From NCBI GenBank assembly GCA_042568285.1, contig JBHPIX010000002.1, positions 783 through 64,782 of the forward strand: 64,000 bases of DNA. The letters run 5' to 3'. Position numbers and translations under genes: made by a program. The notes beneath the pieces are model-generated. The model was not told the DNA's origin. It searched no databases and saw nothing but the letters and a program-made list of their open reading frames with translations. The DNA is from Patescibacteria group bacterium (GTDB taxonomy: Bacteria > Patescibacteriota > Patescibacteriia > JAZDEU01). Of the stretch, positions 2,687 to 53,000 are shown in pieces. The first letter of the stretch is position 1. Every line of letters begins with the position of its first letter.

Positions 2687-5600
2687 ATGAAAAATAAATT
2701 TGTCCAGAACGAAGAAGATATATTAAAATTTTGGGAAAAAAATAAAACTTTTGAAAAATCAGTGCAAAAAAAAGCGCCAAAAGGCGATTATGTTTTTTAT
2801 GACGGGCCTCCTTTCGCGACAGGGCTTCCGCATTATGGACATATCGTTGCAAGTTTAATGAAAGATGTTGTTCCAAGGTATTGGACAATGAAAGGTTATA
2901 AAGTAGAAAGAAAATGGGGCTGGGACTGCCATGGATTGCCAGTTGAAAATATCGCTGAAAAAGAATTAAAAATAAAAAATAAAAAAGACATAGAAAAAAA
3001 TGGTGTCAAAAATTTCAATGAAGAATGCCGAGGTCTTGTGCTTAGATATGCTGATGAATGGAAAACAGTAATACAGAGAATTGGTAGATGGGTTGATATG
3101 GAAAATGATTATAAAACAATGGAAGCTGACTATATGGAATCAATCTGGTGGGTATTTAAATCATTATGGGATAAAAAATTGATCTATAAAGGTCATAATA
3201 GTATGCATATTTGTCCAAGATGCGGAACACCTCTATCCAATTTTGAGGTGAGTCAAAATTATCAGGACATAAAGGACTTATCTGTTATTGCTAAATTTGA
3301 ATTAGAAGACGAACCAGAAACATACATTTTAGCATGGACAACTACACCATGGACATTGCCGGGTAATGTTGCTTTAGCTATGGGCGCTAAAATTGATTAT
3401 GTAAAAATTAAAAATTTGAAGGATAATAAGCATTATATCTTAGCAAATGCAAATTTAGAACAATTATTCGCTACTGACGAATATAAGGTAGAACAAATAC
3501 TGCATGCGGAAGATTTGACAGGCAAAAAATATAAGCCTCTGTTTGATTATTTTATAAAAACAGATTTAGAAAATAAAGAAAATTTATATACAATTCAAAC
3601 TGCTAATTTTGTAATGGTTGGAGAAGGGACAGGAATAGTTCATATTGCTCCAGCATTTGGAGAAGATGATATGAATATAGGCAAAGAAAAAAAATTGCCT
3701 ATGATTCAACATGTTTCTCCAAATGGTAAATTTACGGATGATATAAAAGAATGGGCAAATGAAACTGTAAAACCAAAAGAAGATACACAAGCGACAGATA
3801 AAAAAATAGTTGATTATTTGGATAAAAAAGGATTAATTTTTAAATCAGAAGAATTTGAACATAGCTATCCATTATGCTGGCGATGCGATACGCCTCTTTT
3901 AAATTATGCCACTGACTCCTGGTTTGTAAAAGTTGCAGAAATAAAAGATAAAATGATAGCTAATAATGAAAAAATGAATTGGATGCCTAAACATATCAAA
4001 TATGGTCGATTTGGCAAATGGCTTGAGAATGCTAGAGATTGGGCTATTTCCCGCGAAAGATATTGGGGCGCTCCATTGCCAGTTTGGGAATGCGATAAAT
4101 GCGAAGAGACAGAAGTTATTGGAGATATAAAAACTTTGGAAGATAAAGCTCTTAAAAATGGAAAAGTTTATTTTATAAGACATGGAGAAGCTGACAATAA
4201 TGTAAATCAAACTTTAAATTCTAAAACAGATGATGACATTAACATAACAGAAAAAGGCATTGAAGAAATTAAAAAATCCGCGAATGAATTGAAAGATAAA
4301 AAAATAGATATTATAATTTCTTCCGACATTAATAGATCTGTTCAAAGCGCTGAAATTTTATCAAAAGAATTAGGATTAGAAATACAGTATGATAAAAGAT
4401 TACGGGAAGTAAATATAGGAGATTGGAATGGAGATTTAATGGAAGATCATAAAGATTTTATAAATAAATGGCGAGCTGGCGAATTAGTAACTTACCCTAA
4501 TGGAGAAAATTGGCTTGACGCAAAAAAAAGAATCAAATTATTCTATAATGATTTATTAAGGGACTATGGAAATAAAAATATTTTATTAGTTAGTCATGGC
4601 GATTTAAGCGTCGCTTTTGAAAGTATTTTAAAATCTAAAAATTTCCTGCAAAGCATTAAAGAAAAATTTAGTTCTTGCAAAAAACTTTCAGAAAATAACC
4701 ATAAAAATGCGGAAATAAAAATTTATGATCATAAAATTATAGATTTGCATAAACATAATATAGATTCTCTAAAATGGAAATGCGATAAATGCGATGGCGA
4801 AATGAAAAGAATTGATTCTGTTGTTGATTGCTGGTTTGAGTCAGGTTCTATGCCATACGCGCAAAATCATTATCCTTATGAAAATAAAGAAAAATTTGAA
4901 CAAAATTTTCCAGCGCAGTTTATAGCGGAAGGAATTGATCAGACAAGAGGATGGTTTTATACTCTGCTTGTTCTATCCAGCGCGCTATTTGACAAGCCGC
5001 CTGCGCTAAATGTAATTGTGAATGGAATTGTTTTAGCTGAAGATGGGCAAAAGATGGCAAAATCAAAAAAGAATTATCCTGATCCGATGAAAATTATTGA
5101 TGAATATGGAGTTGATCCATTAAGGCATTATTTATTATCATCTCCTGTTATGTCTGCCGAAGGATTAAATTTTTCAGAAAAAGGAGTTAAAGAATCTCTG
5201 CAAAAAACAGTAATGCTTATTAGTAATATCTTATCATTCTATAAAATGTATGAAGAAAAAACATCAGTAAATGAAAAAATTGATAGTTCTAATGTTCTTG
5301 ATAAATGGATAATAGCTATGCTTAATAAGCTAAATGCTACTGTTGAAAAATCTATGGATAATTATAATCTTCAAGAAGCATCGCGACCGATTGAAAAATT
5401 CATAAACGACTTTTCAACATGGTATTTGCGCCGTTCTAGAGATAGGTTTAAAGGTGATGATGAGAAAGATAAAGAATGCGCATTGCAAACAACCAAATAT
5501 GTATTAATTGAGTTGTCAAAAATAATAGCTCCTTTTATGCCGTTTATCTCTGAACAGGTTTGGCAGGAGACCACTGGTTATAATTTTAAGAATCCGGATA

Positions 5601-6124
5601 AAAGCGTGCATTTGGAGGAGTGGGCAAAGGCAGGTGAGATTGATAAAAATATTTTAGAAAAAATGGCATTAGTCCGCCAAATCGCGGAACAAGGATTATC
5701 AGCTCGCGCAGAGGCTGGTATAAAAGTTAGACAGCCACTTCAAGCATATTGCACTTCCCTAACAGATTCTCTTGAACCTGCATATATATCAATGCTTCAA
5801 GAAGAATTAAATGTTTTAGAAATAAAATTTGGCGAGGATAAATTATCTCTCAAATTAACTCCCGAATTAATTAGAGAGGGAATGGCGAGAGAATTAATTC
5901 GTCAGATAAATAACTTGCGAAAAAATCAAGGGTTAACTATAAACGACCGCGTAAAAATATATTATCAAACAAATTCTGAGGACATAAAAAATACACTTTC
6001 AAAATTAGGAGAACAAATTAAAAAAGATACTTTAGCGGATGAACTTATTTTTGGCGATGTTTTAGATGGGAAAGAGGTTAAAATTAATGGTGAGGTTGTT
6101 AGGATTGGGATAGAGAGGATATAA
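2687..6124 (+). CDS. ileS: Isoleucyl-tRNA synthetase with an inserted histidine-phosphatase-like domain
   Basis: It has a HIGH-type motif (PHYGHIVAS), a KMSKS-type motif (KMAKSKKN), WAISRERYWGAPLPVW and VVDCWFESGSMPYAQ. It is a single uninterrupted 1145-codon ORF. Confidence 0.93.
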   Translation: MKNKFVQNEEDILKFWEKNKTFEKSVQKKAPKGDYVFYDGPPFATGLPHYGHIVASLMKDVVPRYWTMKGYKVERKWGWDCHGLPVENIAEKELKIKNKKDIEKNGVKNFNEECRGLVLRYADEWKTVIQRIGRWVDMENDYKTMEADYMESIWWVFKSLWDKKLIYKGHNSMHICPRCGTPLSNFEVSQNYQDIKDLSVIAKFELEDEPETYILAWTTTPWTLPGNVALAMGAKIDYVKIKNLKDNKHYILANANLEQLFATDEYKVEQILHAEDLTGKKYKPLFDYFIKTDLENKENLYTIQTANFVMVGEGTGIVHIAPAFGEDDMNIGKEKKLPMIQHVSPNGKFTDDIKEWANETVKPKEDTQATDKKIVDYLDKKGLIFKSEEFEHSYPLCWRCDTPLLNYATDSWFVKVAEIKDKMIANNEKMNWMPKHIKYGRFGKWLENARDWAISRERYWGAPLPVWECDKCEETEVIGDIKTLEDKALKNGKVYFIRHGEADNNVNQTLNSKTDDDINITEKGIEEIKKSANELKDKKIDIIISSDINRSVQSAEILSKELGLEIQYDKRLREVNIGDWNGDLMEDHKDFINKWRAGELVTYPNGENWLDAKKRIKLFYNDLLRDYGNKNILLVSHGDLSVAFESILKSKNFLQSIKEKFSSCKKLSENNHKNAEIKIYDHKIIDLHKHNIDSLKWKCDKCDGEMKRIDSVVDCWFESGSMPYAQNHYPYENKEKFEQNFPAQFIAEGIDQTRGWFYTLLVLSSALFDKPPALNVIVNGIVLAEDGQKMAKSKKNYPDPMKIIDEYGVDPLRHYLLSSPVMSAEGLNFSEKGVKESLQKTVMLISNILSFYKMYEEKTSVNEKIDSSNVLDKWIIAMLNKLNATVEKSMDNYNLQEASRPIEKFINDFSTWYLRRSRDRFKGDDEKDKECALQTTKYVLIELSKIIAPFMPFISEQVWQETTGYNFKNPDKSVHLEEWAKAGEIDKNILEKMALVRQIAEQGLSARAEAGIKVRQPLQAYCTSLTDSLEPAYISMLQEELNVLEIKFGEDKLSLKLTPELIREGMARELIRQINNLRKNQGLTINDRVKIYYQTNSEDIKNTLSKLGEQIKKDTLADELIFGDVLDGKEVKINGEVVRIGIERI
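4105..4779 (+). other. Histidine phosphatase (PGAM/RHG superfamily)-like domain nested inside IleRS
   Basis: The segment reads VYFIRHGEADNN (RHG at 4178-4186) ... SSDINRSVQSAE ... LREVNIGDWNG ... LLVSHGD (SHG at 4592-4600). It lies between the two CDKC knuckles at 4091-4102 and 4781-4792. Confidence 0.7.
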
Positions 6125-27714: not shown

Positions 27715-28776
27715 TTAAAATTTCAACCCCTTGACAACTTTATACATATTATACCAAATTTTTCTTAAAATAACATCATAAGTCCCTGCATAATGCGCTT
27801 CAAATCCGCCAAACCCCTTTTTAAACCGTGTAATCCCCTGCCATTCACCTTTTTGCGTTTCAACACCTCCAAAATTATAATATTTATATTGCTTTTCAAT
27901 AGCATCTTGAATTATTTGCCATTGTAATAAATAAGTAGCCATTAAATTGCGATTTTCATAATCAGATCCTCCATGCATATATGTCGCAGTGTCGCCAAAA
28001 TAACTTACCATATTAGAAGCTATAATTTTTCCTTCATATTCAGCAACCCATAATTTAACATCGCCATCAACACAAAAAACGCTCGCCCCCCCTTCCCCTA
28101 TTCGTGTTGATTCGTTTTTAGATTCGTGTTCATTCGTATTCCCCCCTAAAATCCCATTATAATATTCTTTAGTATGAGTATTTATATTTTTTCTATTATA
28201 CGTATTAGAAATCAACTCCCAAAATTTCTCAAAATCATTATTATTATTCGCAAGTCTAATCTTAACACCTTTCTTTTTTGCTAACATAATATTATATCTT
28301 GTCTTATGATGCATACCAGCTAATAATTCTTCCTTATTTTTTTTCAAATCTAACACCCAGTCATTTTCAGGCTGGACAGATTTCACCCGCCTGCCTATTC
28401 TTAAATCGTTTTCATCAGATTCAGCTGACAATTCAACTCTAACAAACATGCTCTTTTCTTCTTTCGCCAATTCTTTAATTTTTTTTAAAAAAATATTCCA
28501 TGACTTTGGACTTCTTGCCCCGTGTTCATCACTGGGGTGGACTTTGGACTTTGGATTTACTCCCGGTCCCCTTGGACAATATAAATAATTCTGCCCAAAA
28601 GGCAGACTATATTTTATAATTTGAGCTACCACACCATCCACTACAACTCGCCAAACTTTCCTCCCCATTTTTTTATGAAATTCTCCCCATTCCCAAGACT
28701 GCAAAAATTGAGCATTTTTTTGGCTAGCAACAAGTTCATTCCATTTATTTTTATCTGTAATTTCTGTTATATTCAT
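27715..28776 (-). CDS. FemAB/FemX-family peptidoglycan peptide-bridge transferase with two repeat-derived in-frame segments
   Basis: It has FLQSWEWGEFHKKMGRKVWR, YCPRGP, HKTRYNI and the C-terminal FKKGFGG motif. The likely start is ATG 28776 (MNITEI). Confidence 0.78.
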   Translation of the reverse strand: MNITEITDKNKWNELVASQKNAQFLQSWEWGEFHKKMGRKVWRVVVDGVVAQIIKYSLPFGQNYLYCPRGPGVNPKSKVHPSDEHGARSPKSWNIFLKKIKELAKEEKSMFVRVELSAESDENDLRIGRRVKSVQPENDWVLDLKKNKEELLAGMHHKTRYNIMLAKKKGVKIRLANNNNDFEKFWELISNTYNRKNINTHTKEYYNGILGGNTNEHESKNESTRIGEGGASVFCVDGDVKLWVAEYEGKIIASNMVSYFGDTATYMHGGSDYENRNLMATYLLQWQIIQDAIEKQYKYYNFGGVETQKGEWQGITRFKKGFGGFEAHYAGTYDVILRKIWYNMYKVVKGLKF

Positions 28777-28849
28777 ATATAAACTTTTACACACCCCTGC
28801 CCCCTCTCATAGAGGGGAACTAACTGACACATTCTCTCATACTTTCCAC

Positions 28850-37139: not shown

Positions 37140-37350
37140 CAAAACTACTATCCCTGAAAATATAATCTATCTTGTCTACATCAAAAGGGCCATTTATGAT
37201 ATGGGCAAGAAAAAGCTTTGATGGCTCTTTAGTCTTTCCTATAATATACTTAGCTACTGTATCCAAATCTATTGATATAGGATAATTTGACTCAATGTTT
37301 TTATGGATTAATCCAACACAAGACTTTAATTCTCTGGGAAGTGGATTGTC
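37140..37350 (-). pseudogene. HD-domain (dGTPase/SAMHD1-like dNTP triphosphohydrolase) fragment abutting the right IS end
   Basis: The minus-strand frame reads ...LIHKNIESNYPISIDLDTVAKYIIGKTKEPSKLFLAHIINGPFDVDKIDYIFRDSSF and then enters the IS IR. It has no start codon and overlaps the 5' end of the LamG ORF. Confidence 0.45.
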
Positions 37351-40300
37351 TTACGAGCAGATATTTATAAGTAAGTCTCCTACAAATGGCGCAGAAGAAG
37401 GAAGTTTTATTTTTAAAATTGATACAGATACAGATAAATTGCAATTTGGCGCGTTTGATAATGCAGGCGATGTTGTTGTTAATATTTTTGGTACGAATAC
37501 ATCTTGGAATGCTAATCAATGGTATCAAATAGCAATTACATTTAATGGGGCAGGTTATGAAGTTTATTTAGACGGTCAGTCGGATGGGTACACTACAGAT
37601 TCAGATTCGTTTGGTTCAACAGATCAAACATATTACATTGGAAGAGCTGGAAATGATGTAAATCCTCAATATTTCGACGGCCTCATAGACTCTGTCAGAA
37701 TATACAACCGAGCCCTAACCGCGAATGAAATAAGGGCGCATTATGATTTGGGAAGCCATATACAAGATGGGGATATGGAGGATGCTTCTGGCAGTCGTGT
37801 TGTTGGAGAATGGAATCAGTCAAGCGAGGGAGCGGAACTTTTAACAAATGGAGGATTTGAAACAGCTGGCGGTGGCGGAGCAGATGTTTGGGGAACATGG
37901 GCGGAAAACGCTGGGGATGGCGGGTTGGCGAATGAGACAAGTATAAAATACGCTGGTTCGGATGCGGCATCAACAACTGCTGGAAGTTTAACAGACACTT
38001 TTGTCAAACAAGCCGCGGCAGTTACCACTGGCAATATGTATAAGGCGACATTTTATACAAGAGGCGATGGAACATATTCAGGACAATACGCGATTTGGGA
38101 TGCCACAAATGATGCTGTTATAACAGCCACAACAACAGCTGGAATTACTGGAACAACATACACTAAATTTACAAAATATTTCACAGCGCCATCCAGTTGC
38201 GCGTCAGTTGATCTGCATTTATACGCGCCATCAACTGAAGGCGGAACCGCGTATTTTGACGATGCGTCTGTCATAGCCGCCCAAGTGGCGTCACCCGAAT
38301 CTGGAATTGTTCGCGCGGAAGATGGGCTTGTCGGGGGGTGGAATTTTAGTGGAACATCCGGGACATCCGCGGATGGGGATACTTTGACAGATGTGTCTGG
38401 AAACAGCAATGATGGAACAGGCGTTGATGGAGCTAATAATACTGGTTTAGGATTTGTGAGTGGTCGGTTTGGGACTGCGATTGAGTTTGATGGGGTGGAT
38501 GATTATGTTGATTGTGGAACGAATAGTAGTTTATTACCAAATATATTTACAGCCATAGCATGGGTTAAATATGATGGAAGTCAGACAGATGCACCTTTGA
38601 TTACTTGGGCTACAACTCAACCCGGGATTTATATCGAGTTCTTGAACGTCGGTCCACTTATCTATATTGGTGTTGAAAATTTTAGATACTTTGAAAAAGA
38701 TAGTCCAGTTGATGTATTTAATAATAAATGGCATCAGCTTGCTTTTGTAGTAACAGGTAATGCCCAAAACGATATTGATAATTCAAAATTATATGTTGAT
38801 GATAGAGAACAAGATATTAGGACTACTAACAATACTGGTACGCCCGACACAAAAACTTTTCTTAGAATTGGAGTTGGGCATTCGAATTATTTCAACGGCG
38901 CCATAGACTCCGTTCGCGTATATAACCGCGCCCTATCTGCAGGTGAAATAGTGGCGCATTATTCGTCCACACGAGGGAAGTTTGGGGAGTATTCCGCGAA
39001 GATAAAATTAGTAGATGATAATAGCAACAGTTATTTAGATGAAATATTAACTGATGATCAAGATTATCTGCTGTCATATTGGTATAAAGCAGGAGAAGAC
39101 AATGCTAATCCGATAAATTTTACAGCGTCTGGCACTGCCATAATGCTTCCTGAACAAAACATAATGGCTTCGTCCACAACCGGACTTGTGGGAGCTTGGA
39201 ATTTTGAGGAAGCGGCGACACCATCGGTAGATGTATCTGGAAATGGACATTCATTAACATGGAACGGAACAGCGGCAAAATCAACATCTGGAAAATTCGC
39301 AAACGCGATAGACTTAGATGGCGATAGCGATTATTTAAATAAAACAGATTCAGATAGTTTAGATTTAGCATCAGCCGCAACAATATCAGCATGGGTATAT
39401 TTAGATGATCTTGCTGCCCAACACTGCATTGCGGACAAAGGAACAAATTACGGAGTTCATATAGATACTTCAGGATATTTAACATGGGATAATGGAACAG
39501 AATATAAAGACACAACAGCAATAGCGGCAACAACATGGACGCATGCAGTAGTAGTTAATGATGGAACAACAGCAAGTTATTACATCAATGGAACTTACTC
39601 AAGCAATGACACAGCAGGATTCGCGGCTATAAACGCAAGCGATTTAAGAATAGGATATGATGGAACAAATTATTACCAAGGATTGATAGATAATTTGAGA
39701 ATATATAATAAAGCCCTAACTGCCTCTGAAGTGTATGAAAGCTATAAAGCAGGAGATTGGAGACAATATGAACTGTCATTTGAAGCAGACGCTGGAGTAG
39801 CAGGAGTCCATGCTTTTAGCTTTATTCAAGATGGAACAACAGCCGGCAACAGCATCGTTTATGTGGATAACTTTAGATTGGATAAAAATTTAGCGGATAA
39901 AGGTTCGTTTGAAGCTTTTTCCGGCGGAGACCCTGACATTCCAACTGGATGGGTAAATGAAAGTTTGTCAGCAGGAGAAGGGGACGAAGGCGATGAGGAA
40001 ATACATTCTGGAAGCAAAAGTTTTGAACTCATTGACGCCGACGATGGAGAAGGAATTATGCAGGGGATTACTGTGACATCTGGCAATTGGTACACATTTG
40101 GAATGTGGGCAAAAAATAATAATCAAGATGTGGAAGCAATAATAGGAGGAACAGCTCTCGCAAGCACAACCATTGATTTGACGACCGCGGGAAATATTTG
40201 GACAAAATTTAATAAAACATTTATCGCAAGCAGTACAGATTTGGCGATTTTAATTTCTGCCGGAGCCGCAACCCAAGACGGATATTTTGACGATGTAAGT

Positions 40301-42757
40301 CTGGTAGAGCTGGACTCCTACTCTGGCGCGGCAACTGCCACAACAACAACACCATCGTCTGCCGCAAACTCATACAGCTATGGCAGATGGGGAGAATCTT
40401 CTGGCTCGTTGATGATGGATGGAGGGGATACTTTAACATACCCGACAGCGAATAATATGTATGCTGATCAAGGATCATTCAGCTTTTGGATAAAGCCGTC
40501 TATGGACTATGACGACTATGCGGAAAATAAATACCTTTGGGATGTTTCAGACGGAACAAATAACGCCATAAGATTATATTACAATTATTCTGACTATAAA
40601 TTCTATTTTGAAATATACGACGGAGCGTCTTGGACATCTGTGCAAGCAGCTTCTTCTGCTCAATCTTTTACAGAAGACACGTGGATACATTTGGCAGGCA
40701 CATGGAACGACAGAAAAAATTTGGTTTATTTATATGTGAACGGCGCGAATGACGGATCATCGGATTGGGGTTGGTACGCGCAAACATTGCCGACTAATAT
40801 GTATTTTGGATCTGATTACAGCGGAACAAATAACGCTGATATGTATATTGACGATTTGCGGGTTTATGAATACGCGCTTTCAGCGGAAGATATTAGCCGA
40901 ATGTACGGCTCTCTTCCAGATCCGTCTGCTGACAATTTAAGAGTATCAATCCCATTCACATCAGGAGGAATTGGCATAGACGGAACTGGATTATTTGATC
41001 TCACTGGAACGTTTACTGCTGGGTGGGGATACCGAACTGGAAAAGTGTCTGGAGAAAACGCCATGCTCTTCGCTGGTTCCGACGATCTGCAGTTTTCACG
41101 TGGAGACCAGCTGGACGGCAACATTTATGAATATATTAGCCCGTATCAGGGCACGATTAAAACTTGGGTTAGATCTGGATTTGATGGATCAGATTCTACA
41201 ACAAATTACATTTTCCAAAATGGAAGCACAAGCTACATCAAACTGTACTCCAGTTCAGGAACTCTATATTTTGACATAGCAACAACAACAGGCGCTGTTA
41301 TTAGCAGAGTATCAAATGACATTTCTGGCTGGACAGCGGGAGAGTGGCATCATATTGCCGCAGTTTGGAGCAATGAAAATACTGTTTCAACAAGTTCCAC
41401 TCAATATTTAATGGAACTATATGTGGACACTGCCATCGCTGGAAATACTTATACTAATGCCACATTTAACACAAATTTTTGGGCATCGTTCGCCCCCGGA
41501 ACATCTTTTATTGGAGAAGATTCAGATTCAGCAAATCAGTGGGATGGATTGATTGGAGGATTTGTTTTGGAAAATCGGGCTTGGAGCGGGAATGAAGTGT
41601 CTGACGACTATAATTCTGGAACAGGCACTGCGGTTGCGGTTAATCAATCAACCATTATGTCCCTGCCATTTGATTCAGCTGATCTTGACGGATTGGTAAC
41701 TTGGGCAACCTCTACACAAAATGTGGTGGCTGATTGGAATATGGAAGATGGGGATGCGGGGGAATGGACAGATACGTTAAACGCTTCCAGCTCCGCAGAA
41801 TCAGGAATCGTAACAGCAGAGGATGGGTTGGTGGGGGGATGGAATTTTGAGGATGATTTAACAGATGATAGCGGGAATAGCAAGACAGGCGTTTCTCATA
41901 CAGATCCAGACTGCCCGACAGGCTATGTATTTGTTCCCGGTAATTCAACTTATAGCACAAGCGATTTCTGTGTAATGCAATATGAAGCGAAGTATGATTC
42001 TAATGACGACGGGACAGGGGATGACGCGCCAACAGAATGTAAATATAACACAGATTATGATACTTGGGACTGGGGGAAAGATGTAGCGACAGAATGCGGG
42101 TATGATGTAAATGAAACAGCAAGAGTAGTATCAACAGCGGCAGGATCTCCAATAGCTGGCATTACGCATACAGAAGCGTTAAGCGCCTGTCCCTCTGGGG
42201 ATCATATAATAACAAATGACGAATGGATGACAATCGCAAGAGACGCGGAACAAGTGAATGCTAACTGGACAGGCGGAGAAGTCGGTTCGGGGTGTTTGTT
42301 TGCAGGGAATAATGGAGACGCGACTTGCGGGTATAATGGCGATGATCCAGAAAAAGGAACTGGAAGAAACGCGAGAGCTAAATTTATTCTTTCCAGCGGA
42401 GAAGAAGTTTATGATATATCAGGAAATGTTTGGGAACATGTAAAAGTTGATGCAAGTGATACTTTAATTGATGACACTCCTACTGACGGCGGGGCGGCTG
42501 AATGGCGTTGGATTGAATTTACAGCTATTACAGGCTATGGCGATCTTAGTTATGATCAAATTAGACCTTCTAATTCTTCTTGGAATGCTGATCAAGGGAT
42601 GGGGCGATTATATACCTATAATGGCGTGAGTAGCAACCGCGTGTTTCTTCGTGGTGGCATGTGGTCCGATGATACTAACGCCGGCGCGTTCACGTTGAGC
42701 TTGAATTGGACGGCGAGCACTCAGCATTATACTGTTGGTGTGCGGTGTGCCAGGTAG
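37295..42757 (+). CDS. DGR target protein: multi-LamG (concanavalin-A-like) repeat protein with CBM-like modules and a C-terminal C-type-lectin/FGE-sulfatase-fold variable domain; apparently 5'-truncated
   Basis: The LamG signature recurs (F(D/N)G.IDSVRIYNRAL(T/S)A.EI..HY) along with NGGFE...YFDD modules. The C-terminus reads CPTGYVFVPG...DISGNVWEHV...VFLRGGMWSDDTNAGAFTLSLNWTASTQHYTVGVRCAR. There is no signal peptide or RBS, and the ORF begins inside a LamG domain (MFLWINPTQ). Confidence 0.85.
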   Translation: MFLWINPTQDFNSLGSGLSYEQIFISKSPTNGAEEGSFIFKIDTDTDKLQFGAFDNAGDVVVNIFGTNTSWNANQWYQIAITFNGAGYEVYLDGQSDGYTTDSDSFGSTDQTYYIGRAGNDVNPQYFDGLIDSVRIYNRALTANEIRAHYDLGSHIQDGDMEDASGSRVVGEWNQSSEGAELLTNGGFETAGGGGADVWGTWAENAGDGGLANETSIKYAGSDAASTTAGSLTDTFVKQAAAVTTGNMYKATFYTRGDGTYSGQYAIWDATNDAVITATTTAGITGTTYTKFTKYFTAPSSCASVDLHLYAPSTEGGTAYFDDASVIAAQVASPESGIVRAEDGLVGGWNFSGTSGTSADGDTLTDVSGNSNDGTGVDGANNTGLGFVSGRFGTAIEFDGVDDYVDCGTNSSLLPNIFTAIAWVKYDGSQTDAPLITWATTQPGIYIEFLNVGPLIYIGVENFRYFEKDSPVDVFNNKWHQLAFVVTGNAQNDIDNSKLYVDDREQDIRTTNNTGTPDTKTFLRIGVGHSNYFNGAIDSVRVYNRALSAGEIVAHYSSTRGKFGEYSAKIKLVDDNSNSYLDEILTDDQDYLLSYWYKAGEDNANPINFTASGTAIMLPEQNIMASSTTGLVGAWNFEEAATPSVDVSGNGHSLTWNGTAAKSTSGKFANAIDLDGDSDYLNKTDSDSLDLASAATISAWVYLDDLAAQHCIADKGTNYGVHIDTSGYLTWDNGTEYKDTTAIAATTWTHAVVVNDGTTASYYINGTYSSNDTAGFAAINASDLRIGYDGTNYYQGLIDNLRIYNKALTASEVYESYKAGDWRQYELSFEADAGVAGVHAFSFIQDGTTAGNSIVYVDNFRLDKNLADKGSFEAFSGGDPDIPTGWVNESLSAGEGDEGDEEIHSGSKSFELIDADDGEGIMQGITVTSGNWYTFGMWAKNNNQDVEAIIGGTALASTTIDLTTAGNIWTKFNKTFIASSTDLAILISAGAATQDGYFDDVSLVELDSYSGAATATTTTPSSAANSYSYGRWGESSGSLMMDGGDTLTYPTANNMYADQGSFSFWIKPSMDYDDYAENKYLWDVSDGTNNAIRLYYNYSDYKFYFEIYDGASWTSVQAASSAQSFTEDTWIHLAGTWNDRKNLVYLYVNGANDGSSDWGWYAQTLPTNMYFGSDYSGTNNADMYIDDLRVYEYALSAEDISRMYGSLPDPSADNLRVSIPFTSGGIGIDGTGLFDLTGTFTAGWGYRTGKVSGENAMLFAGSDDLQFSRGDQLDGNIYEYISPYQGTIKTWVRSGFDGSDSTTNYIFQNGSTSYIKLYSSSGTLYFDIATTTGAVISRVSNDISGWTAGEWHHIAAVWSNENTVSTSSTQYLMELYVDTAIAGNTYTNATFNTNFWASFAPGTSFIGEDSDSANQWDGLIGGFVLENRAWSGNEVSDDYNSGTGTAVAVNQSTIMSLPFDSADLDGLVTWATSTQNVVADWNMEDGDAGEWTDTLNASSSAESGIVTAEDGLVGGWNFEDDLTDDSGNSKTGVSHTDPDCPTGYVFVPGNSTYSTSDFCVMQYEAKYDSNDDGTGDDAPTECKYNTDYDTWDWGKDVATECGYDVNETARVVSTAAGSPIAGITHTEALSACPSGDHIITNDEWMTIARDAEQVNANWTGGEVGSGCLFAGNNGDATCGYNGDDPEKGTGRNARAKFILSSGEEVYDISGNVWEHVKVDASDTLIDDTPTDGGAAEWRWIEFTAITGYGDLSYDQIRPSNSSWNADQGMGRLYTYNGVSSNRVFLRGGMWSDDTNAGAFTLSLNWTASTQHYTVGVRCAR
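42635..42756 (+). other. DGR variable region (VR)
   Basis: It is 122 nt and 109/122 identical to 43199-43320, with 11 mismatches opposite TR adenines. It covers the last 40 codons of the target ORF. Confidence 0.88.
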
Positions 42758-42801
42758 TTTGTAGATATCTGGTATCTGAAATTTAGGTATCTGGTAAAAT
42801 T

Positions 42802-43134
42802 ATGATAAATGATTTAATACTTTTTCAAAAATTTTATGATTTTATCCTTTGGATTTATCCTACGGTCAACAAATTTCCCAAAACCCAAAGATTTGTTTTA
42901 GGACAGCAAATTTCAAATACGGTTTTAGATATTTTAAAAAATATAATTCAGGGAAATTCTGAACGATATAAATTACCATATCAAAAACAGGTAAGTGTTG
43001 ATCTGGATAAATTAAGGATTCTAATTCGTCTTTCAAAAGATTTAAAATTTATAAGTATAAAGCAATATGGATTTGCTTCGGATAAAATTAATGAGATTGG
43101 AAGATTGTTGGGTGGTTGGATAAAAAATACTTAG
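42802..43134 (+). CDS. avd: DGR accessory variability determinant (Avd-like four-helix-bundle protein)
   Basis: It is 110 aa and lies between VR and TR. Avd-like features are YPTVNKFPKTQRFVLGQQI and the C-terminal EIGRLLGGWIKN. Confidence 0.8.
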   Translation: MINDLILFQKFYDFILWIYPTVNKFPKTQRFVLGQQISNTVLDILKNIIQGNSERYKLPYQKQVSVDLDKLRILIRLSKDLKFISIKQYGFASDKINEIGRLLGGWIKNT

Positions 43135-43198
43135 AACATATAAACTTGAAGTTATTTAGGTTTATGCGTTTTAGGACGCAGAAGGGGTAAAGTCGCAT

Positions 43199-43320
43199 AA
43201 CCGCGTGTTTCTTCGTGGTGGCAAATGGAACAATGAAACTAACGCCGGCGCGTTCACGTTGAACTTGAATTGGAATGCGAGCAATCAGAATTATAATGTT
43301 GGTTTGCGGTGTGCCAGGTA
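43199..43320 (+). ncRNA. DGR template repeat (TR)
   Basis: It is a non-coding copy of the VR, rich in AAY codons when read in the VR frame (NRVFLRGGKWNNETNAGAFTLNLNWNASNQNYNVGLRCAR). It has 32 adenines, 11 of them substituted in the VR. Confidence 0.88.
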
Positions 43321-43483
43321 TTTCTCAATTTGGTCTGAGTGAAATGCTTACGGGCATAAGTCCGAGCCAGAAAACTACTGATTTTATTCCATCCTTGAAA
43401 AAGGAAAATACTTGGCTTTTACCTCAAGGCGGTGAGAGTATTTTCTTTAGAAAAGAAATTTCCGTCTTGAGCATTAAGCCATT

Positions 43484-44515
43484 ATGAAATCACACAAGAA
43501 TTTATTTTTAAAATTTTGTTCTTTTGAAAATCTATATAGCGCATACTTAAAAGCAAGAAGTTGTAAACGATATAAAGAGTATGTTTTGGAATTTAGCTAT
43601 AATTTAGAGCAAAATTTATTCTTTTTACAAGATGAATTAATAACTCAAAAATATCATTGTGGAAAATATAATGAATTTATTGTTAATGATTCAAAAAAGC
43701 GACTTATTAAAGCGCCTGATTTTAGAGATAGAATTGTCCATCACGCGTTATGTAATATTATTGAACCGATTTTTGACAATAGTTTTATTCACGATAGTTA
43801 TGCCTGCAGAAAAAACAAAGGAACGCATAAAGCGATTTTGAGATTAAAGGGTTTTTTAAAAAATAAAGAAAATGTTTATTGTTTACAATGTGATGTTAGA
43901 AAATTTTTCGCGAGTATAGATCAGAATATTTTAAAAGAATTGACAAAGAAGAAAATAGCGGATAAAAAAATTTTGAAAGTTATAAATTTAGTAATAGATA
44001 GTAGTTTTGACAATAAAATTTATGAAAATTTATTTGATTTTCGTTTAACAGGAGTTCCTTTAGGAAATCTTACAAGCCAGCTTTTTGCTAATATTTATTT
44101 GAACGAATTAGATCAATTGGTAAAGCATAAACTAAAAGCAAAATATTATATTCGCTATATGGATGATTTTTTAATTTTGGGGTATAATAAAAAGAGATTG
44201 CAACAGCAAAAAGAAGAAATATATTATTTTTTGAAGAATAGCTTAAAATTAGATTTGCATCCTAAGAAATGTAATATGTTTACTGTAAAAAGTGGAATTG
44301 ATTTTCTTGGTTATAGAATTTTTGCAAATTATCGTTTGTTAAGAAAAAGCACAGTGAAAAGATTTATAAAGAGGACAAGAGTTTATAAACGGAAAGTAGA
44401 TAGCGATTTGATGTCATTAGAAAAATTTAATCAATCTTTGCAGTCATGGCTTTCTTACGCTAAATTTGGGAATTCATGGGGGTTGATTGGAAGTTTGGTT
44501 GAGCTTTGGAATTAA
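43484..44515 (+). CDS. DGR reverse transcriptase
   Basis: RT motifs include GVPLGNLTSQLFANIYL (44051-44086; the (I/L)GxxxSQ signature typical of DGR RTs) and YMDD (44156-44167). It starts 164 nt downstream of the TR. Confidence 0.9.
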   Translation: MKSHKNLFLKFCSFENLYSAYLKARSCKRYKEYVLEFSYNLEQNLFFLQDELITQKYHCGKYNEFIVNDSKKRLIKAPDFRDRIVHHALCNIIEPIFDNSFIHDSYACRKNKGTHKAILRLKGFLKNKENVYCLQCDVRKFFASIDQNILKELTKKKIADKKILKVINLVIDSSFDNKIYENLFDFRLTGVPLGNLTSQLFANIYLNELDQLVKHKLKAKYYIRYMDDFLILGYNKKRLQQQKEEIYYFLKNSLKLDLHPKKCNMFTVKSGIDFLGYRIFANYRLLRKSTVKRFIKRTRVYKRKVDSDLMSLEKFNQSLQSWLSYAKFGNSWGLIGSLVELWN

Positions 44516-48428: not shown

Positions 48429-48483
48429 CAAATAACATCCGCCAAATCGGCGGATTAAAACAATAATAAATTTACAAATGACA

Positions 48484-48640
48484 AAAGAATCCCCCTCGTC
48501 TCGCCTTTCCGCTTCGGGCTCGAATCGAGACGAGCGGCAAGCCGAAGCGGACTGACCCCCTTTTGAAAAGGGGGAACTAGAGGAATTAATTTAGCAAGTG
48601 CCCCCCTCTGGAGGGGGGATAGGGGGAAGGTTAAATTTTA
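48484..48640. repeat. GC-rich modular repeat cluster (intergenic)
   Basis: The sequence aaagaatccccctcgtctcgcc...ggcaagccgaagcggactgacccccttttgaaaagggggaacta is followed by the gtgcccccctctggagggggg palindrome. The first module recurs inside the giant ORF at 51956-52024. Confidence 0.85.
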
Positions 48641-48709
48641 AATTTTAAAAAAACCTGCCCGACTTTGTCATTCAGGCGGGTATCAAATAACAAATTTTAA
48701 AAGGGCTCT

Positions 48710-48786
48710 GGATTCCCGCCTTCGCGGGAATGACAAAAACGCATTCGTGGGGAATGACAAAGAGGCTTCGCGGGAATGACAAAAAC
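48710..48786. repeat. Three tandem half-elements ending in gggaatgacaaa
   Basis: The sequence is ggattcccgccttcgcgggaatgacaaaaac / gcattcgtggggaatgacaaagag / gcttcgcgggaatgacaaaaac. It generates the artificial MTK...GMTK N-terminus of ORF 48730. Confidence 0.8.
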
Positions 48787-48816
48787 GGGAGGGGAGGGAA
48801 TAATTTCAAATTAGTT

Positions 48817-49350
48817 ATGGTTATAAATATGCTTAAAGAAGAAAACAATTTAGCTTTTGTTGACGGACAGAATTTATATTTAGGGACAACAAAGTCAAAA
48901 AACAGGTGGAAAGTTGATTTAGCTAAGTTTAGAATTTATTTGAATAAAAAATATAAAGTTGATAAAGCTTATTATTTTTTGGGGTGCGTTAATGATAATT
49001 ACCAAGATTTGTATGACGAAATTCAAGAAGCTGGTTTTATTTTGAAATTTAGAGAACATAATACTGTTATGTTGGGGAAGAAAAAAGGCAATGTTGATTC
49101 AGATATTATATTTTTTATTATAGAAAAAATGTATAGAAAAGAAAAATTTGATAAAATTATTTTAGTCTCTGGCGATGGTGATTATAGAAAATTAGTTGAT
49201 TTTTTGATTGAAGAAAATAGGTTTGAGAAAATTCTTTTTCCAAATAAGAAATTCGCGTCTTCCTTGTATAAAAAATTATCAAGCAAATATTATGACCATT
49301 TAGGAAACGAGGAAATAAAAGCGAAAATAAAAAAGGGTCCCCTTAGGTAG
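48817..49350 (+). CDS. NYN/LabA-like (PIN-like) domain protein
   Basis: It has LAFVDGQNLY, GNVDSDIIF and ILVSGDGDY motifs. The start is moved to ATG 48817 because the first 29 codons of the tracked ORF are repeat sequence. Confidence 0.7.
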   Translation: MVINMLKEENNLAFVDGQNLYLGTTKSKNRWKVDLAKFRIYLNKKYKVDKAYYFLGCVNDNYQDLYDEIQEAGFILKFREHNTVMLGKKKGNVDSDIIFFIIEKMYRKEKFDKIILVSGDGDYRKLVDFLIEENRFEKILFPNKKFASSLYKKLSSKYYDHLGNEEIKAKIKKGPLR

Positions 49351-49414
49351 TTAGCCGTTCGGATTCCCTTCGTCTTGATAGTTATATTGTAGCATATTTA
49401 ACATTTATGTCAAG

Positions 49415-49597
49415 GGTGTGGGGGGGGATCCTTGTCAACCCTGTTTCTGCTGGAATACACGAAGGGGGGAACACGAATCTTGAGAGTGGGGACAGTCCGC
49501 CTTTCCGCCTCGGCTCGCTCCGCTTCGGATTGCCTAAGGCGAGACGGGAGCTCAGCGAGACAGGGGCTCGACAGCAAAGTCGAGACAGGGGGTGTGT
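49415..49597. repeat. GC-rich modular repeat cluster
   Basis: It contains acacgaa modules, gtccgcctttccgcctcggctcgctccgcttcggattgcctaaggcgagacgg, and cgagacagg words. The overlapping ORFs 49382-49609 (-) and 49407-49631 (+) are probably artefacts. Confidence 0.8.
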
Positions 49598-49785
49598 AAA
49601 ATTTGGCAAGGAATTTATAAATATGGTATAATAATTGGGGAATGAATTTTAAATTTTAAATTTAAAAAAAATAATCAATAATAAATATCAAATAACCAAA
49701 CGGGAAAATCAAATCCAAATGTCAAAAATGGAAATGGGAATTTAAAATGTTTAAAAGAAATATAAAATTAAAAAATAAAAATAGC

Positions 49786-49815
49786 AAATTAAAAACTGCT
49801 CTGTTAAAAGCAGTT
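49786..49815 (-). terminator. Rho-independent terminator of the tRNA gene
   Basis: On the minus strand the stem is AACTGCT / AGCAGTT (forward 49809-49815 and 49794-49800), followed by TTTAATTT. Confidence 0.6.
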
Positions 49816-49823
49816 CTTAGGTG

Positions 49824-49895
49824 TGGACATGACGGGAATCGAACCCGTACGACTACCTGTCAAGAGCAGCATGCTACCATTAACATTACATGCCC
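49824..49895 (-). tRNA. 72-nt class I tRNA with anticodon UGA in the best fold; acceptor carries G3:U70 and A73; identity uncertain
   Basis: The fold is GGGCATG TA ATGT TAATGGTA GCAT G CTGCT CTTGACA GGTAG TCGT ACGGG TTCGATT CCCGT CATGTCC A. The T-arm is canonical, and U8, G18G19 and U33 are present. Oddities are U14 and C37. No CCA is encoded. Confidence 0.65.
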
Positions 49896-49910
49896 ATGTC
49901 CACAAGATTT

Positions 49911-49939
49911 ATTATAAAGCAAAAAGAACCCTTTTTCAA
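49911..49939 (-). promoter_or_regulatory. Sigma-70-type promoter for the tRNA gene
   Basis: On the minus strand: TTGAAA (forward 49934-49939), a 17-nt spacer, then TATAAT (forward 49911-49916). The -10 box ends 15 nt upstream of the mature 5' end. Confidence 0.55.
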
Positions 49940-50082
49940 GGATCCTTTTTGTTGACAGGTAGTAATGCCTGTAATGTATAGGCATACTGCTCTTAATGTT
50001 TAAAGTATAGCATAAATTAAAAAAATGTCAAGTGTTAAAAAATTTTATGGAATTAGGTAGTTAATTAGAGAGATAAATTATA

Positions 50083-53000
50083 ATGCAAAAAAATATAAAA
50101 AATAAAAATCACAGACCCCCCCCTACCCCCCCCTTAGTAAGGGGGGGAGCGAATAACCTCCCCCCTGCCAAGGGGGGAAGCAGGGGGGTAGAAAAGAGGG
50201 GAATTATATTGTTGTTAACAGCTATTTTTGTTGTGAGTGGAATTTTTGGCGGTCTGCTGAAAACGAAAAAAGTAAATGCGCAAAATTTTATAGATACGGC
50301 TGCTCTGCAACAACGAGAAAGAGACTATCAGACTCACCTTGCAGAGGAAGCAGCAGACAAAGCTAAAGAGTTGAAGTGGAAGGCATTTAAGACGGCGACT
50401 TATAATATAATAGTTAGCATGGCAAATAATTTTACTCAAAGCCTTGCTTATAATTCAGCTGTATTTATAGCAGAAGGCGGGAAAGGCAGACAAGGTTTAG
50501 GTTGGAGTGAAAGTTGGAGTAAATATTTGAACGATGCAAAAGATGCCGCTCTTGGCGACTTTATTGGTTCAATTAGCCAAGTATGGGGAGTAGATTTTTG
50601 CGATCCCGGAGCGCTTGAAAAAATAGATATAACATTTGGGTTAATCGCAAGTATTCAAAAACCGCCTAAACCGAGATGCGATTGGAAAGATATAAAAAAC
50701 AGTTGGGACAAATTAGATGACAATGATTTTACTACAAAATTAGGATTTATGTTTAATCCAAAAGTTAATTATTTAGGAAGCAGTTTTGCTCTTAAGTCAG
50801 AAATGGAGCAGTCAGCAAAAGATAATGAAAACTTAGCTAAAATGGTCAGAGGAATACCAACAGAAACAGGATTTAAAAGTATCAATGATACTGTGTCAGG
50901 GTATATACAAACTCCTGATAGTATAATTAAAGAGATGGCATGGTATCCTGCGGATGAAGCGGCAAGAAATAGGCAAACAGAGGGGATCGGTAACGCTCTT
51001 ATGGCAGATCTTGTTGTCCCAACATTTAAGACATTTTTTAGCACCCTCACTGGAAAGTTAATGGAAAAATGGGCAAACAAAGGAATGTTTCAAAAAAGTT
51101 CTGGAAGCAGATCTATAACTGATCCAGAATCATCTGCCACATTAGTTGCGTCGCAAAATGACACAAAAGCGATGTATGGAGATTTAATGGAATCTGAGTT
51201 TGGAGCTGGAGGTAATTATGATATTTTATCTGATTTTGTTTCTTGCCCTGTTATGCCTCAAAATTTAAAAAATGGACCAACAAATTGTGTTATTGACAAC
51301 GGTTTTAGAATGGCTATTGAAGAAGGATTGACAGTTGGACAGGCTATAAATAATAATTATTTAAAAAAAGATAATATTTTTGGGTTTAAATCTGACGGGC
51401 AAACCCCAGATTATAAAGAAGGATATTCTTTGCGGAATATGATTATTTTAAGGAGCTATCGCATATTGCCAGTTGGCTGGGAAATAGCGACGCAATATAT
51501 TGAAAAATACATTGAAAGTGAAGCATATACTTTAGGCGAAATGGTTGCTTGTTATTCTATTGATGATAATTGGACAGGAGTTGAAGAAAGTTGGTGCAGA
51601 GGTATGGTTGATCCATCATGGGTTTTGAAAGCTCCAGCGAATAATTGTGATAAAATGGCTTATGGCCAAGAAATAATAAGTAAATCTACTAGTAAAGGAA
51701 TAGATATGAATAAAGACGGGAAATATTATAATTTTAATAAAGATAAAGATGATCCGTTAAATGAATTAGATGATAATGACAGTCCGCCAATAATGAACAT
51801 AACCCGCAATGAATTCTGCGCGGAAACTCAAAGTTGTTTAATGGAACGGGATGATGGCAGTTGTTTGAAATGGGGGACTTGTTTGGAGGAAAAGCGGATA
51901 TGGGAATTTGAAGGTGATAAATGCGATGCTATATATAATAGTTGCATGGAATATGAAAGAATCCCCCTCGTCTCGCCTTCGGCAAGCCGAAGCGGACTGA
52001 CCCCCTTTACAAAAGGGGGAACTAACACCACCTCGTCAACACGGGGAGGAATTGCGTATTTGAAAAATAGTTTGGATTATGGGGTTTGCGGAGCGAATAA
52101 TGCTGGATGTTCTTGGTTATGCCAATATTATGATAAAGAAAAAGAAGAATGGACATGTGGAATGGATCCAGCTTCGCCTTTAGCGTTTCCAGAAGGATAT
52201 AGTTTGCCAGCTCCGACGACTGGCGCGTTATTTTTTGATAATTCTGTCCAAGAATGCGAACAAGCGGATGAAGGATGTCATAAATATATTAGATTGACAG
52301 ACGGAGCGAATTTAGTTTTTAATGGCGGATTTGAAAAGGGCGCTGAAACAGCTTTAAATTTAGATGGTCAGCCCGCCAATTCTTCTGTAATAATCAAATT
52401 TAATGATTGGCCTATTGAAAAAAGTTCTGGAGATAATTTTGAAATTGAAAAGATGATTGATAATGAAAAAGGAGGCTGGGTTTATAAAATAACAACAAAT
52501 GGTGGAAATAATGGATTATATTTTTATGATAATTCTAAAAAAGATTTAACATTGATGCCAAGTAATTACAGATTTGATTTGTATAAAAATTACGTGTTTT
52601 CCGTTGATGTAAAAGTGATTTCTGGAAAGGTTGAGATCGGGCTTACAGACGGATCTGCACGGATTGTAAACGGATCTTCACGGATAGGTGAATGGGAAAG
52701 AATAGTTGTTGAATTGCCAAAGGAAGAAATGATTATCAATAAAGCTTTTATACATAGTGTTGGAGGATCGGAATTTTATTTAGATAATGTTCAATTGGAG
52801 GAGGTACAGACGGATTTGCACGGATTGGGAACGGATGGGGACGGATATGCGTATAAGGAGTATGGAGATTATAGCAGAGTAGCTTATATTAAAAAAGCTC
52901 CTGATTATTTAGATTGCGCGAATAATATAAAGTTATTTAAGCAAGGAGTGGAAAATGGGACTCTTACACCAACTGAACTGGAAAATTATGAAAACATTTT

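Follow-up and report, generated by a model that had tools for sequence, protein, structure and literature searches.

Natural tRNAs whose identity elements and anticodon belong to different amino acids are rare, and they bear directly on what keeps the genetic code fixed and how it can be bent on purpose. The staphylococcal non-proteinogenic tRNA-Gly, which is used by FemXAB, keeps its cognate anticodon and evades translation because its T stem and D loop are altered; we know of no antisense RNA for it. Among antisense RNAs, those that control plasmid copy number dock on a U-turn loop. Described natural tRNAs of hybrid identity include the Streptomyces tRNAProX, which works with ProRSx, and the allo-tRNAs with G3:U70, which insert Ala in Escherichia coli (PMC11415595, PMC10404621, PMC5389517). 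In the CreTA toxin-antitoxin (TA) system, CreA acts through Cascade on the promoter and not by pairing with the toxin RNA (PMC8501985, PMC10097628, PMC12283969). Here we analysed a stretch of 64,000 nucleotides from a Patescibacteria group bacterium (contig JBHPIX010000002.1), referred to below as the window, the positions being those of this stretch. It holds a minus-strand tRNA gene that combines a UGA serine anticodon with identity elements for alanyl-tRNA synthetase (AlaRS), and directly upstream of it a gene for a putative small RNA (sRNA) antisense to that tRNA. What is new is a conserved bacterial family of predicted plain cloverleaf tRNAs with alanine identity and a Ser anticodon (Pro in one relative), together with an apparently co-evolving sRNA whose sole role seems to be pairing with that tRNA. 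No description of the family or of a tRNA-directed sRNA was found in open-access papers and bioRxiv.

The tRNA gene and its family

The tRNA gene comprises the following features.

49824-49895, minus strand: tRNA with AlaRS identity elements and a Ser anticodon (ARAGORN, Rfam, family covariation)
49911..49939, minus strand: tRNA promoter, TTGAAA-17-TATAAT (promoter scan, 11/12)
49790..49819, minus strand: terminator-like hairpin of the tRNA, with 13 pairs and a U-run after them (terminator scan)
49896..49903, minus strand: predicted 5' leader of the precursor tRNA, GUGGACAU, 8 nt, complementary to tRNA positions 67-74

The stand-alone 72-nt cloverleaf with anticodon UGA, as read in the initial annotation, was recovered by both predictors. 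ARAGORN labelled 49823-49895 on the minus strand as tRNA-Ser with anticodon tga and found this single tRNA in the whole 64 kb. Rfam RF00005 matched 49824-49895 on the same strand with 48.3 bits, above its gathering score of 29, in an alignment that spanned the full model (1-71) with no non-canonical pairs flagged and a T loop of the GTTCRANYC type. The 72 nt read GGGCAUG UA AUGU UAAUGGUA GCAU G CUGCU CUUGACA GGUAG UCGU ACGGG UUCGAUU CCCGU CAUGUCC A. In the 7-bp acceptor stem (GGGCAUG/CAUGUCC), G3 (49893) and U70 (49827) form the G3:U70 pair, and A73 lies at 49824. The D stem has 4 bp and the D loop carries G18G19. The anticodon stem CUGCU/GGUAG encloses the loop CUUGACA, in which U34, G35 and A36 (49862-49860) form the anticodon and C37 (49859) follows. 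The variable loop has 4 nt, the T arm is canonical, the acceptor/T-stem geometry is 7/5, and CCA is absent from the gene sequence. The minimum-energy structure given by RNAfold for the mature tRNA alone was not the cloverleaf; the cloverleaf was preferred because the covariance model and the covariation described below both back it.

Other readings of the loop were dropped. A register-shifted anticodon (GAC or GGC) is not supported by the stems, and an 8-9-nt loop with quadruplet reading would give quadruplets that mean different things among relatives. The TTGACA inside the tRNA was considered as an internal -35 box and set aside, as no -10 box follows it. The promoter and terminator that had been ascribed to the gene were found again by the scans, and every homologous tRNA has a comparable -10 box upstream. 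The U14 that had been called unusual comes from a compact D-arm type (RUGN-UAAYGGUA-GCAY) that is common, being present in more than 100 phage tRNAs of many isotypes, and this remark was given up. The leader GUGGACAU pairs with the acceptor 3' strand, A73 and C74 through 7 Watson-Crick pairs (duplex search) and G(-8)-C74, 8 in all, so that the pairing proposed earlier extends to full complementarity with positions 67-74. This complementarity is also recognisable in four homologous loci (L014, L040, L022 and L167, by our own numbering). In the predicted precursor folds, the leader/3'-strand helix replaced the acceptor stem in 5/5 loci tested, which suggests that the precursor leader may be a second way to keep the tRNA inactive.

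Relatives were sought in one genome per GTDB species (185,579) with a permissive pattern for a short-variable-arm tRNA with YUUGA in the anticodon-loop position; C37 and A38 were not required. The scan returned 34 loci, and clear homologues were found in six candidate-phyla genomes. These carriers are metagenome-assembled genomes (MAGs) labelled Saccharibacteria, Komeilibacteria, 'Patescibacteria group', Peribacteria (two) and, in one case, uncultured bacterium. The species matches in GTDB thus number six, or about seven when a non-patescibacterial look-alike is counted, and a metagenome scan added only two further distinct members. Among IMG/VR viral contigs, the pattern of a short-arm tRNA with the loop CUUGACA was matched 11 times by chance and by no tRNA. 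An anticodon-free pattern of D arm plus T arm was swamped by ordinary compact phage tRNAs and was left unused on the large collections. Separately, an Endomicrobiaceae MAG (L026, 2152-2222, minus strand) carries a short-variable-arm tRNA with anticodon UGA in the loop CUUGAGA; its acceptor stem is different, and it has no evident kinship with the patescibacterial family.

The comparison of homologous loci showed the cloverleaf to be kept in nine distinct sequences. Among these, 96% of the cloverleaf cells were in standard pairs, with compensatory double changes in 14 of the 21 pairs, and 0/500 shuffles did as well. The alanine identity set that had been read from the sequence proved invariant: G1-C72, G2-C71, G3:U70 and A73 were the same in 9/9, with acceptor pairs 4-7 co-varying around them. 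The anticodon UGA was found in the window tRNA and in 9 homologues. C37, noted before as odd, is a fixed feature of the nine distinct sequences, as is A38. The 31-39 pair was weak throughout (U:G, G:U, U:U, C:C and a single U-A) and never G-C. Judged by these compensatory changes, this is a real tRNA family and not a decayed gene.

Several lines pointed to alanine as the amino acid carried. When the family was compared with a library of 1153 tRNAs predicted from the fetched loci, tRNA-Ala(UGC) was the closest isotype for seven of the eight members tested. The eighth gave a Val/Ala tie at 0.77 with Val listed first, and Ser was absent from the top five isotypes in all comparisons. Seryl-tRNA synthetase (SerRS) needs a long variable arm, E. 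coli tRNA-Ser has the discriminator G73, and AlaRS does not read the anticodon. Measured as a bacterial tRNA-Ser, the window tRNA has a serine anticodon and lacks both the long variable arm and G73, having a 4-nt loop and A73 in their place. Measured as an AlaRS substrate, it has G3:U70, A73 and G2:C71 and lacks an alanine anticodon (NGC), carrying UGA, or UGG in the relative at locus L177. The charge is expected to be alanine, because G3:U70 suffices for recognition by AlaRS (PMC11415595) and the long variable arm is absent.

The putative antisense small RNA and its predicted pairing with the tRNA

The initial annotation had overlooked the sRNA gene next to the tRNA, whose terminator overlaps the tRNA promoter that it described, and this neighbour changes the interpretation of the tRNA. 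The ends of the sRNA were placed from the -10 box (5') and from the terminator (3').

50004..50031, minus strand: sRNA promoter, TTGACA, 16 nt, TG-extended TATACT (scan 11/12 with the TG extension)
49920..49997, minus strand: antisense ('anti-tRNA') sRNA, predicted, ~80 nt, directly upstream of the tRNA on the same strand
49982..49996, minus strand: sRNA block a, UUAAGAGCAGUAUGC, antisense to tRNA 22-36; 15 bp, 13 of them Watson-Crick
49967..49977, minus strand: sRNA block c, ACAUUACAGGC, antisense to tRNA 3-13; 10/11 Watson-Crick
49952..49963, minus strand: sRNA block b, ACUACCUGUCAA, antisense to tRNA 33-44; 12/12 Watson-Crick
49920..49951, minus strand: intrinsic sRNA terminator, with 14 pairs and a U-run after them (terminator scan)

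The sRNA promoter is near-consensus, and just one other TTGACA-N-TGnTAnAnT site occurs in the 64 kb. The same promoter lies at an equal distance in L014, L040, L022, L023, L025 and L167. In the same six loci, as in the window, the order promoter, a, c, b, terminator is kept ahead of the tRNA. The -35 box of the tRNA promoter sits in the loop of the sRNA terminator, and some pairs of the terminator hairpin are G:U, which would become A:C on the opposite strand, in keeping with minus-strand transcription. Beyond the terminator, almost all of the sRNA consists of the three blocks antisense to the tRNA. Block a faces the 3' strand of the D stem, the 5' strand of the anticodon stem and the loop up to A36. 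The targets of block c are the acceptor 5' strand, U8, A9 and the 5' strand of the D stem, and its changes in the other six loci are G:U-compatible. Block b sets a UCA 'codon' against the anticodon and a G against C37. A sequence model of the seven loci matched 49920-50000 with 73.8 bits, with one copy per locus and none elsewhere in the window; the sRNA matched no Rfam family. RNAalifold gave only a weak hairpin for the sRNAs alone, so the sRNA is apparently constrained by its target and not by its own fold. The aligned loci show that the tRNA and putative sRNA genes make up a compact module of two RNA genes, ~210 bp in length, which is found repeatedly in Patescibacteria.

The pairing between the two RNAs was examined in two ways. 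Over fixed block ranges we counted 187 Watson-Crick pairs, 27 G:U, 3 A:C and 14 other combinations. The excess of G:U over A:C (27:3, p = 8e-6) is expected if pairing between the RNAs in this orientation is under selection, and would not come from plain homogenisation of inverted-repeat DNA. In the joint alignment, 95.6% of the 203 intermolecular cells were paired, a raw percentage that is inflated by the placement of the blocks on the best diagonal in each sRNA, which does not inflate the locus-specific covariation. The latter was found as double changes in 15 of the 29 intermolecular pairs, with 0/500 shuffles as good. For five of the seven tRNAs, namely that of the window and four more divergent ones, the sRNA of the same locus was the best partner. 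The L014 and L040 tRNAs pair at least as well with the window sRNA, the three closely related modules cross-matching. The covariation shows, on the level of the alignments, that the sRNA blocks co-evolve with the tRNA of their own locus. Such extended, conserved and co-varying complementarity to the product of a neighbouring gene is one of the marks of an antisense-RNA TA pair.

The predicted energies agreed with this pairing. Cofolding predicted a gain in stability of 5 to 19 kcal/mol for the heterodimers over the separate folds, and blocks a and c with the 5' half of the tRNA gave -36.8 kcal/mol. For the block b duplex the prediction was -18.6 kcal/mol, weakening to -12.4 kcal/mol with A at position 37. 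The GUCAA of block b is single-stranded in the fold predicted for the free sRNA, and docking on the loop by CUGUCAAC was estimated at -7.9 kcal/mol, or at -1.8 kcal/mol with A37. In well-studied bacteria, position 37 of the normal tRNA-Ser(UGA) is a modified A. In these models, C37 would let the sRNA discriminate this tRNA from the essential Ser tRNA, and the docking advantage is a possible reason for the odd C37. The weak 31-39 pair would ease strand invasion.

The module recurs without a conserved protein neighbour among its flanks, which hold DnaX, topoisomerase I, NUDIX, an M16 peptidase and unknowns. The window aligns with L014, L040 and L022 (81-82% identity, in unrelated contexts) from the sRNA promoter, or from just inside it, to the tRNA 3' end in the case of L040 and L022 and ~100 nt further in that of L014. 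The closest available relative of the window is L177, which encodes a giant protein with 64% identity and keeps synteny in the downstream genes. The intergenic site at the same position is not alignable at the DNA level, and it holds a tRNA-like gene that scores 39.4 bits with Rfam and is missed by ARAGORN. This gene has G3:U70, A73 and an encoded CCA, and its loop UUUGGCA gives the anticodon UGG (Pro) followed by C37 and A38. Its D loop and T loop are degenerate, with G18G19 absent and the T loop non-canonical. The existence of this relative, which had also been overlooked, implies that the family is not tied to Ser codons. Downstream of it, on the same strand, lies its antisense sRNA. This RNA forms 12/12 Watson-Crick pairs with positions 31-42, which span the anticodon loop, and also matches positions 13-21 over 9 bp and, less well, ~3-12. 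The L177 genes form an array on one strand.

3883-4787, minus strand: L177 one-strand array in the syntenic intergenic region
~4612-4533, minus strand: L177 sRNA-like unit without an obvious local target
4484-4412, minus strand: L177 tRNA-like gene, anticodon UGG
~4345-4265, minus strand: L177 cognate antisense sRNA, putative
~4230-4150, minus strand: further L177 promoter-plus-terminator unit without an obvious local target

In more distant homologues of the locus no such tRNA or sRNA genes were found. On present genomes, the family is patchy, turns over quickly and is not bound to one anticodon, and apart from L168/L170 and L029 its members are accompanied by a matched antisense RNA.

Two further promoters lie near the module. 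One, at 49413..49386 on the minus strand, is the window's sole other promoter of the type TTGACA-16-TGnTACAAT; it heads a unit of ~55 nt (49325-49413, minus strand) that ends in a small hairpin and a U-run and overlaps the 3' end of an oppositely oriented NYN-domain gene. Within this unit lies UAUCAAGA, a potential match to an anticodon loop of sequence CUUGAUA, and the promoter has a positional analogue in L177 at 3949..3922 on the minus strand. On the plus strand, a promoter-like TTGGCA-18-TATAAT with a TG extension lies at 49603-49632, with a similar one seen by eye at ~3967-4000 of L177. Transcription from this plus-strand site, heading for the giant gene at 50083, would yield RNA antisense to the whole tRNA/sRNA module.

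A proposed switch and its rivals

Any role for a tRNA of this kind depends on the meaning of UCA in the genome. UCA is frequent in the open reading frames of the window (235 of 15,370 codons). We aligned IleRS, GyrB, FtsH, PurL and AspRS with their E. coli K-12 orthologues and compared the residues found in E. coli opposite each class of codon.

UCA codons: E. coli Ser 26%, E. coli Ala 20%
Other Ser codons: E. coli Ser 32%, E. coli Ala 15%
Ala codons: E. coli Ser 4.5%, E. coli Ala 48%

UCA did not differ significantly from the other Ser codons, and it differed from the Ala codons with p = 1e-5 for Ser and 2e-4 for Ala. As far as these alignments tell, UCA means serine and the code is not reassigned. 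With UCA read as serine, the genome must encode a normal Ser decoder at another site, and this tRNA would at most compete with it.

The reading that we tentatively prefer is that of a mistranslating Ala-tRNA curbed by a dedicated antisense RNA, which would work as a TA-like or conditional-mistranslation switch. AlaRS would charge the tRNA with alanine, and this Ala-tRNA(UGA), when free, would rival the normal Ser-tRNA and place Ala at UCA, possibly at all UCN codons. The sRNA would use its exposed UGUCAA to dock on the anticodon loop, and the G facing C37 would separate this tRNA from the normal tRNA-Ser(UGA). From there the sRNA would invade the weak anticodon stem and extend its pairing into the D arm and the acceptor 5' strand. 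The acceptor helix would thereby be destroyed, and the tRNA or its precursor could be neither charged nor used. A drop in the sRNA level would release the stable tRNA, and the precursor leader on the acceptor 3' strand may serve as a second lock. If true, this would be a mechanism that switches proteome-wide mistranslation on and off, and the pair would represent a new class of RNA-RNA TA or regulatory module. It would also offer a natural design for the sequence-specific inactivation of one tRNA species, useful in synthetic biology, and annotation pipelines would be mislabelling such Patescibacteria genes as tRNA-Ser. It is possible, though doubtful, that the pair is an RNA-only TA or abortive-infection-type module, mobile in Patescibacteria, with the mis-identified tRNA, of alanine identity and with a Ser or Pro anticodon depending on the relative, as toxin, and with the antisense sRNA, which would recognise the anticodon loop and unfold the tRNA, as antitoxin. 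It would then be the first tRNA-as-toxin system, with the first natural sRNA to have a tRNA as its sole target.

Several points weigh against the switch. Mature tRNAs are hard to unfold, and block b is permuted relative to a contiguous antisense, so that the three blocks cannot pair with one tRNA in a simple linear geometry. A recognisable sRNA is absent from L168/L170 and from L029. The family is small (nine sequences plus one), and the invariance of U33-A36 within it is partly by design, since the large scans demanded YTTGA or YTTGACA. The L177 copy, with its degenerate loops, may be poorly suited to the ribosome. Since a purine at position 37 stabilises codon-anticodon pairing, according to the passage of PMC10543346 that cites Konevega 2004, C37 should weaken decoding. 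Moreover, Ser-to-Ala is the best-tolerated alanine substitution in yeast (PMC10543346), and so mild an exchange would make a weak 'toxin'.

The weakened decoding could also mean that the tRNA is a non-ribosomal alanine donor. It would be charged by AlaRS, kept from translation by C37, and would feed a tRNA-dependent transferase, such as a peptidoglycan branch enzyme of the FemX/FemAB type or alanine tailing of the RqcH type, with the sRNA tuning the supply. We regard this as rather unlikely. The strict conservation of the alanine identity set is in its favour, as is C37, which on the same cited passage (Konevega 2004, as cited in PMC10543346) disfavours decoding. The A36-to-G switch of codon family would also be easier to tolerate if decoding is irrelevant. 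The UGG relative of L177, lacking G18G19 and a canonical T loop, resembles the non-proteinogenic tRNA-Gly of staphylococci. The window itself encodes a FemAB-family protein similar to tRNA-dependent peptidoglycan aminoacyl-transferases (27715-28794, minus strand; Pfam E-value 2e-41), 21 kb from the tRNA. However, a transferase gene is linked to the module in no locus, and ordinary tRNA-Ala serves Fem-type enzymes in other bacteria. An idle anticodon loop should drift, whereas C37, A38 and U33-G35 are kept even in L177, and a harmless donor would hardly need an inhibitor RNA of its own.

It is also unlikely that the two RNAs form a regulatory tRNA-like pair whose members titrate each other or a protein (a sponge or decoy), or that the upstream RNA is a cis-acting leader or attenuator that senses the tRNA and governs read-through into its gene, with charging and decoding incidental. 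The sRNA terminator does lie directly on the tRNA promoter, and the codon-like UCA of block b beside this terminator is loosely reminiscent of a T-box specifier. The precursor leader is predicted to sequester the acceptor 3' strand, and the plus-strand promoter at 49603-49632 would give an antisense transcript through the module. Nevertheless, each tRNA copy has its own -10 box, the distance from terminator to tRNA is variable, and the sRNA of L177 lies downstream, all of which points to action in trans. The invariance of G3:U70 and A73 amid co-varying pairs argues that recognition by AlaRS is under selection. Furthermore, no T-box or other cis-regulatory Rfam family matched the region 49500-50200, even at E-values up to 10.

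An explanation at the level of DNA would dispense with RNA-RNA pairing altogether and see in the sRNA gene an inverted, partly permuted duplication of the tRNA gene, whose similarity is maintained by gene conversion or which serves as a recombination or inversion site. Perfect inverted repeats of 12-15 bp between block b and tRNA 33-46 are present at several loci, and anticodon stem-loops are known target sites of integrases. The deviations, though, are wobble-compatible in one orientation, as the G:U to A:C ratio attests, and the three collinear blocks, the conserved promoter and the terminator share one strand. As no recombinase is linked to the module either, we consider this very improbable.

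It is still harder to credit that UCA is reassigned to alanine, or that the gene is a genuine UCA decoder, a tRNA-Ser with an aberrant short arm. ARAGORN's label and the solitary position of the tRNA in the 64 kb would agree with such a role, but UCA is frequent and aligns as Ser codons do in the five conserved proteins. The family is too sporadic for a general decoder, with six species among the 185,579 species genomes, and it lacks the arm that SerRS needs. Least of all can it be a decaying tRNA-Ala(UGC) pseudogene, as had been suggested, or a chance tRNA-like sequence, since despite a modest Rfam score (48 bits), the unusual C37 and the missing CCA it keeps four stems through compensatory changes in several Patescibacteria lineages, retains promoters and terminators and has a co-evolving partner gene.

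Genomic setting and comparison with known systems

The window has a GC content of ~33% and represents a low-GC bacterial chromosome segment, the nearest named relatives being Falkowbacteria and Magasanikbacteria. For GyrB and the 2761-aa protein, 100% identity was found with NCBI proteins of a 'Patescibacteria group bacterium'. The window carries housekeeping genes (ArgRS, AspRS, IleRS, GyrB, FtsW, FtsH and PurL), several giant surface-protein genes and a complete diversity-generating retroelement (DGR) at 37295-44515.

37295-42757: DGR target gene with an FGE-sulfatase/C-type-lectin-like C terminus
42635-42759: DGR variable repeat
42802-43134: DGR bAvd gene
43199-43323: DGR template repeat, 89% identical to the variable repeat, the differences being nearly all at template adenines
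43484-44515: DGR reverse transcriptase

A tie between the tRNA module and the DGR reverse transcriptase 5 kb away was considered and rejected, as the other loci have no adjacent reverse transcriptase by inspection of open reading frames and a Pfam search of ten flanking proteins. The NYN-domain gene (48730-49350) lies between direct repeats that are ~200 nt long and ~1 kb apart (48450-48800 and 49400-49700). These repeats hold GC-rich stretches (55-63%) in a region of otherwise 20-30% GC, and they matched no Rfam family. They could mark the NYN gene as an inserted cassette or could themselves be a duplicated structured element. Within the first 25 codons of a gene for a 2761-aa protein there is an inverted repeat rich in G/C homopolymers (50116-50147, CCCCCCCTTACTAAGGGGGGGGTAGGGGGGGG on the minus strand), and a similar G-run motif precedes the orthologue of this gene in L177. 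The IleRS (2687-6124, plus strand) has 1145 aa, of which 810 residues align with the 938-aa E. coli IleS. When its translation was read by eye, an insert at about residues 490-680 resembled a histidine-phosphatase (phosphoglycerate-mutase-like) domain.

Among known systems, T-box leaders are similar in that an RNA reads an anticodon through a codon-like triplet near a terminator. The present locus has neither Stem I nor the T-box sequence, its ~35 nt of complementarity would unfold the tRNA, and the element would act on a tRNA gene and not on an aminoacyl-tRNA synthetase or amino-acid operon. With the staphylococcal tRNA-Gly it shares an extra tRNA that would be charged normally and possibly diverted from translation, and a FemAB-family gene is present in the window. 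The canonical tRNA-Ala(UGC), including the compact phage type, has the same G1-C72, G2-C71, G3:U70 and A73, 7/5 cloverleaf, compact D arm and 4-nt variable loop. The tRNA described here differs in having UGA in place of UGC and C37 in place of A37, with a loop of UUG-A-CA against UUG-CA, and in its weak 31-39 pair and putative dedicated antisense RNA.

Type I and type VIII RNA TA systems such as CreTA (PMC8501985, PMC10097628, PMC12283969) likewise contain a small RNA with extended complementarity to the product of its neighbour. Further features in common with antisense-RNA control systems are the compact, protein-free organisation, the patchy occurrence in varied contexts and a loop docking of the YUNR type. 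In contrast, the target here would be a tRNA and not an mRNA, and the two genes are adjacent on the same strand instead of overlapping on opposite strands.

The hybrid-identity tRNAs also carry the identity of one amino acid with the anticodon of another, as conserved gene families. However, tRNAProX has a dedicated synthetase, a tRNA-Pro body and A33/A34, whereas the present tRNA has U33, U34 and an Ala-type body, and no synthetase gene was found beside the module in any locus. The allo-tRNAs (PMC5389517) have an 8/4 or 9/3 geometry and a long variable arm, in contrast to the 7/5 geometry and 4-nt variable loop seen here. The present family also differs in that its apparent partner is an antisense RNA and not a protein. 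Taken together, by its predicted features the pair combines a rare hybrid-identity tRNA, lacking the defining features of tRNAProX and the allo-tRNAs, with an antisense partner that resembles those of type I and type VIII TA systems.

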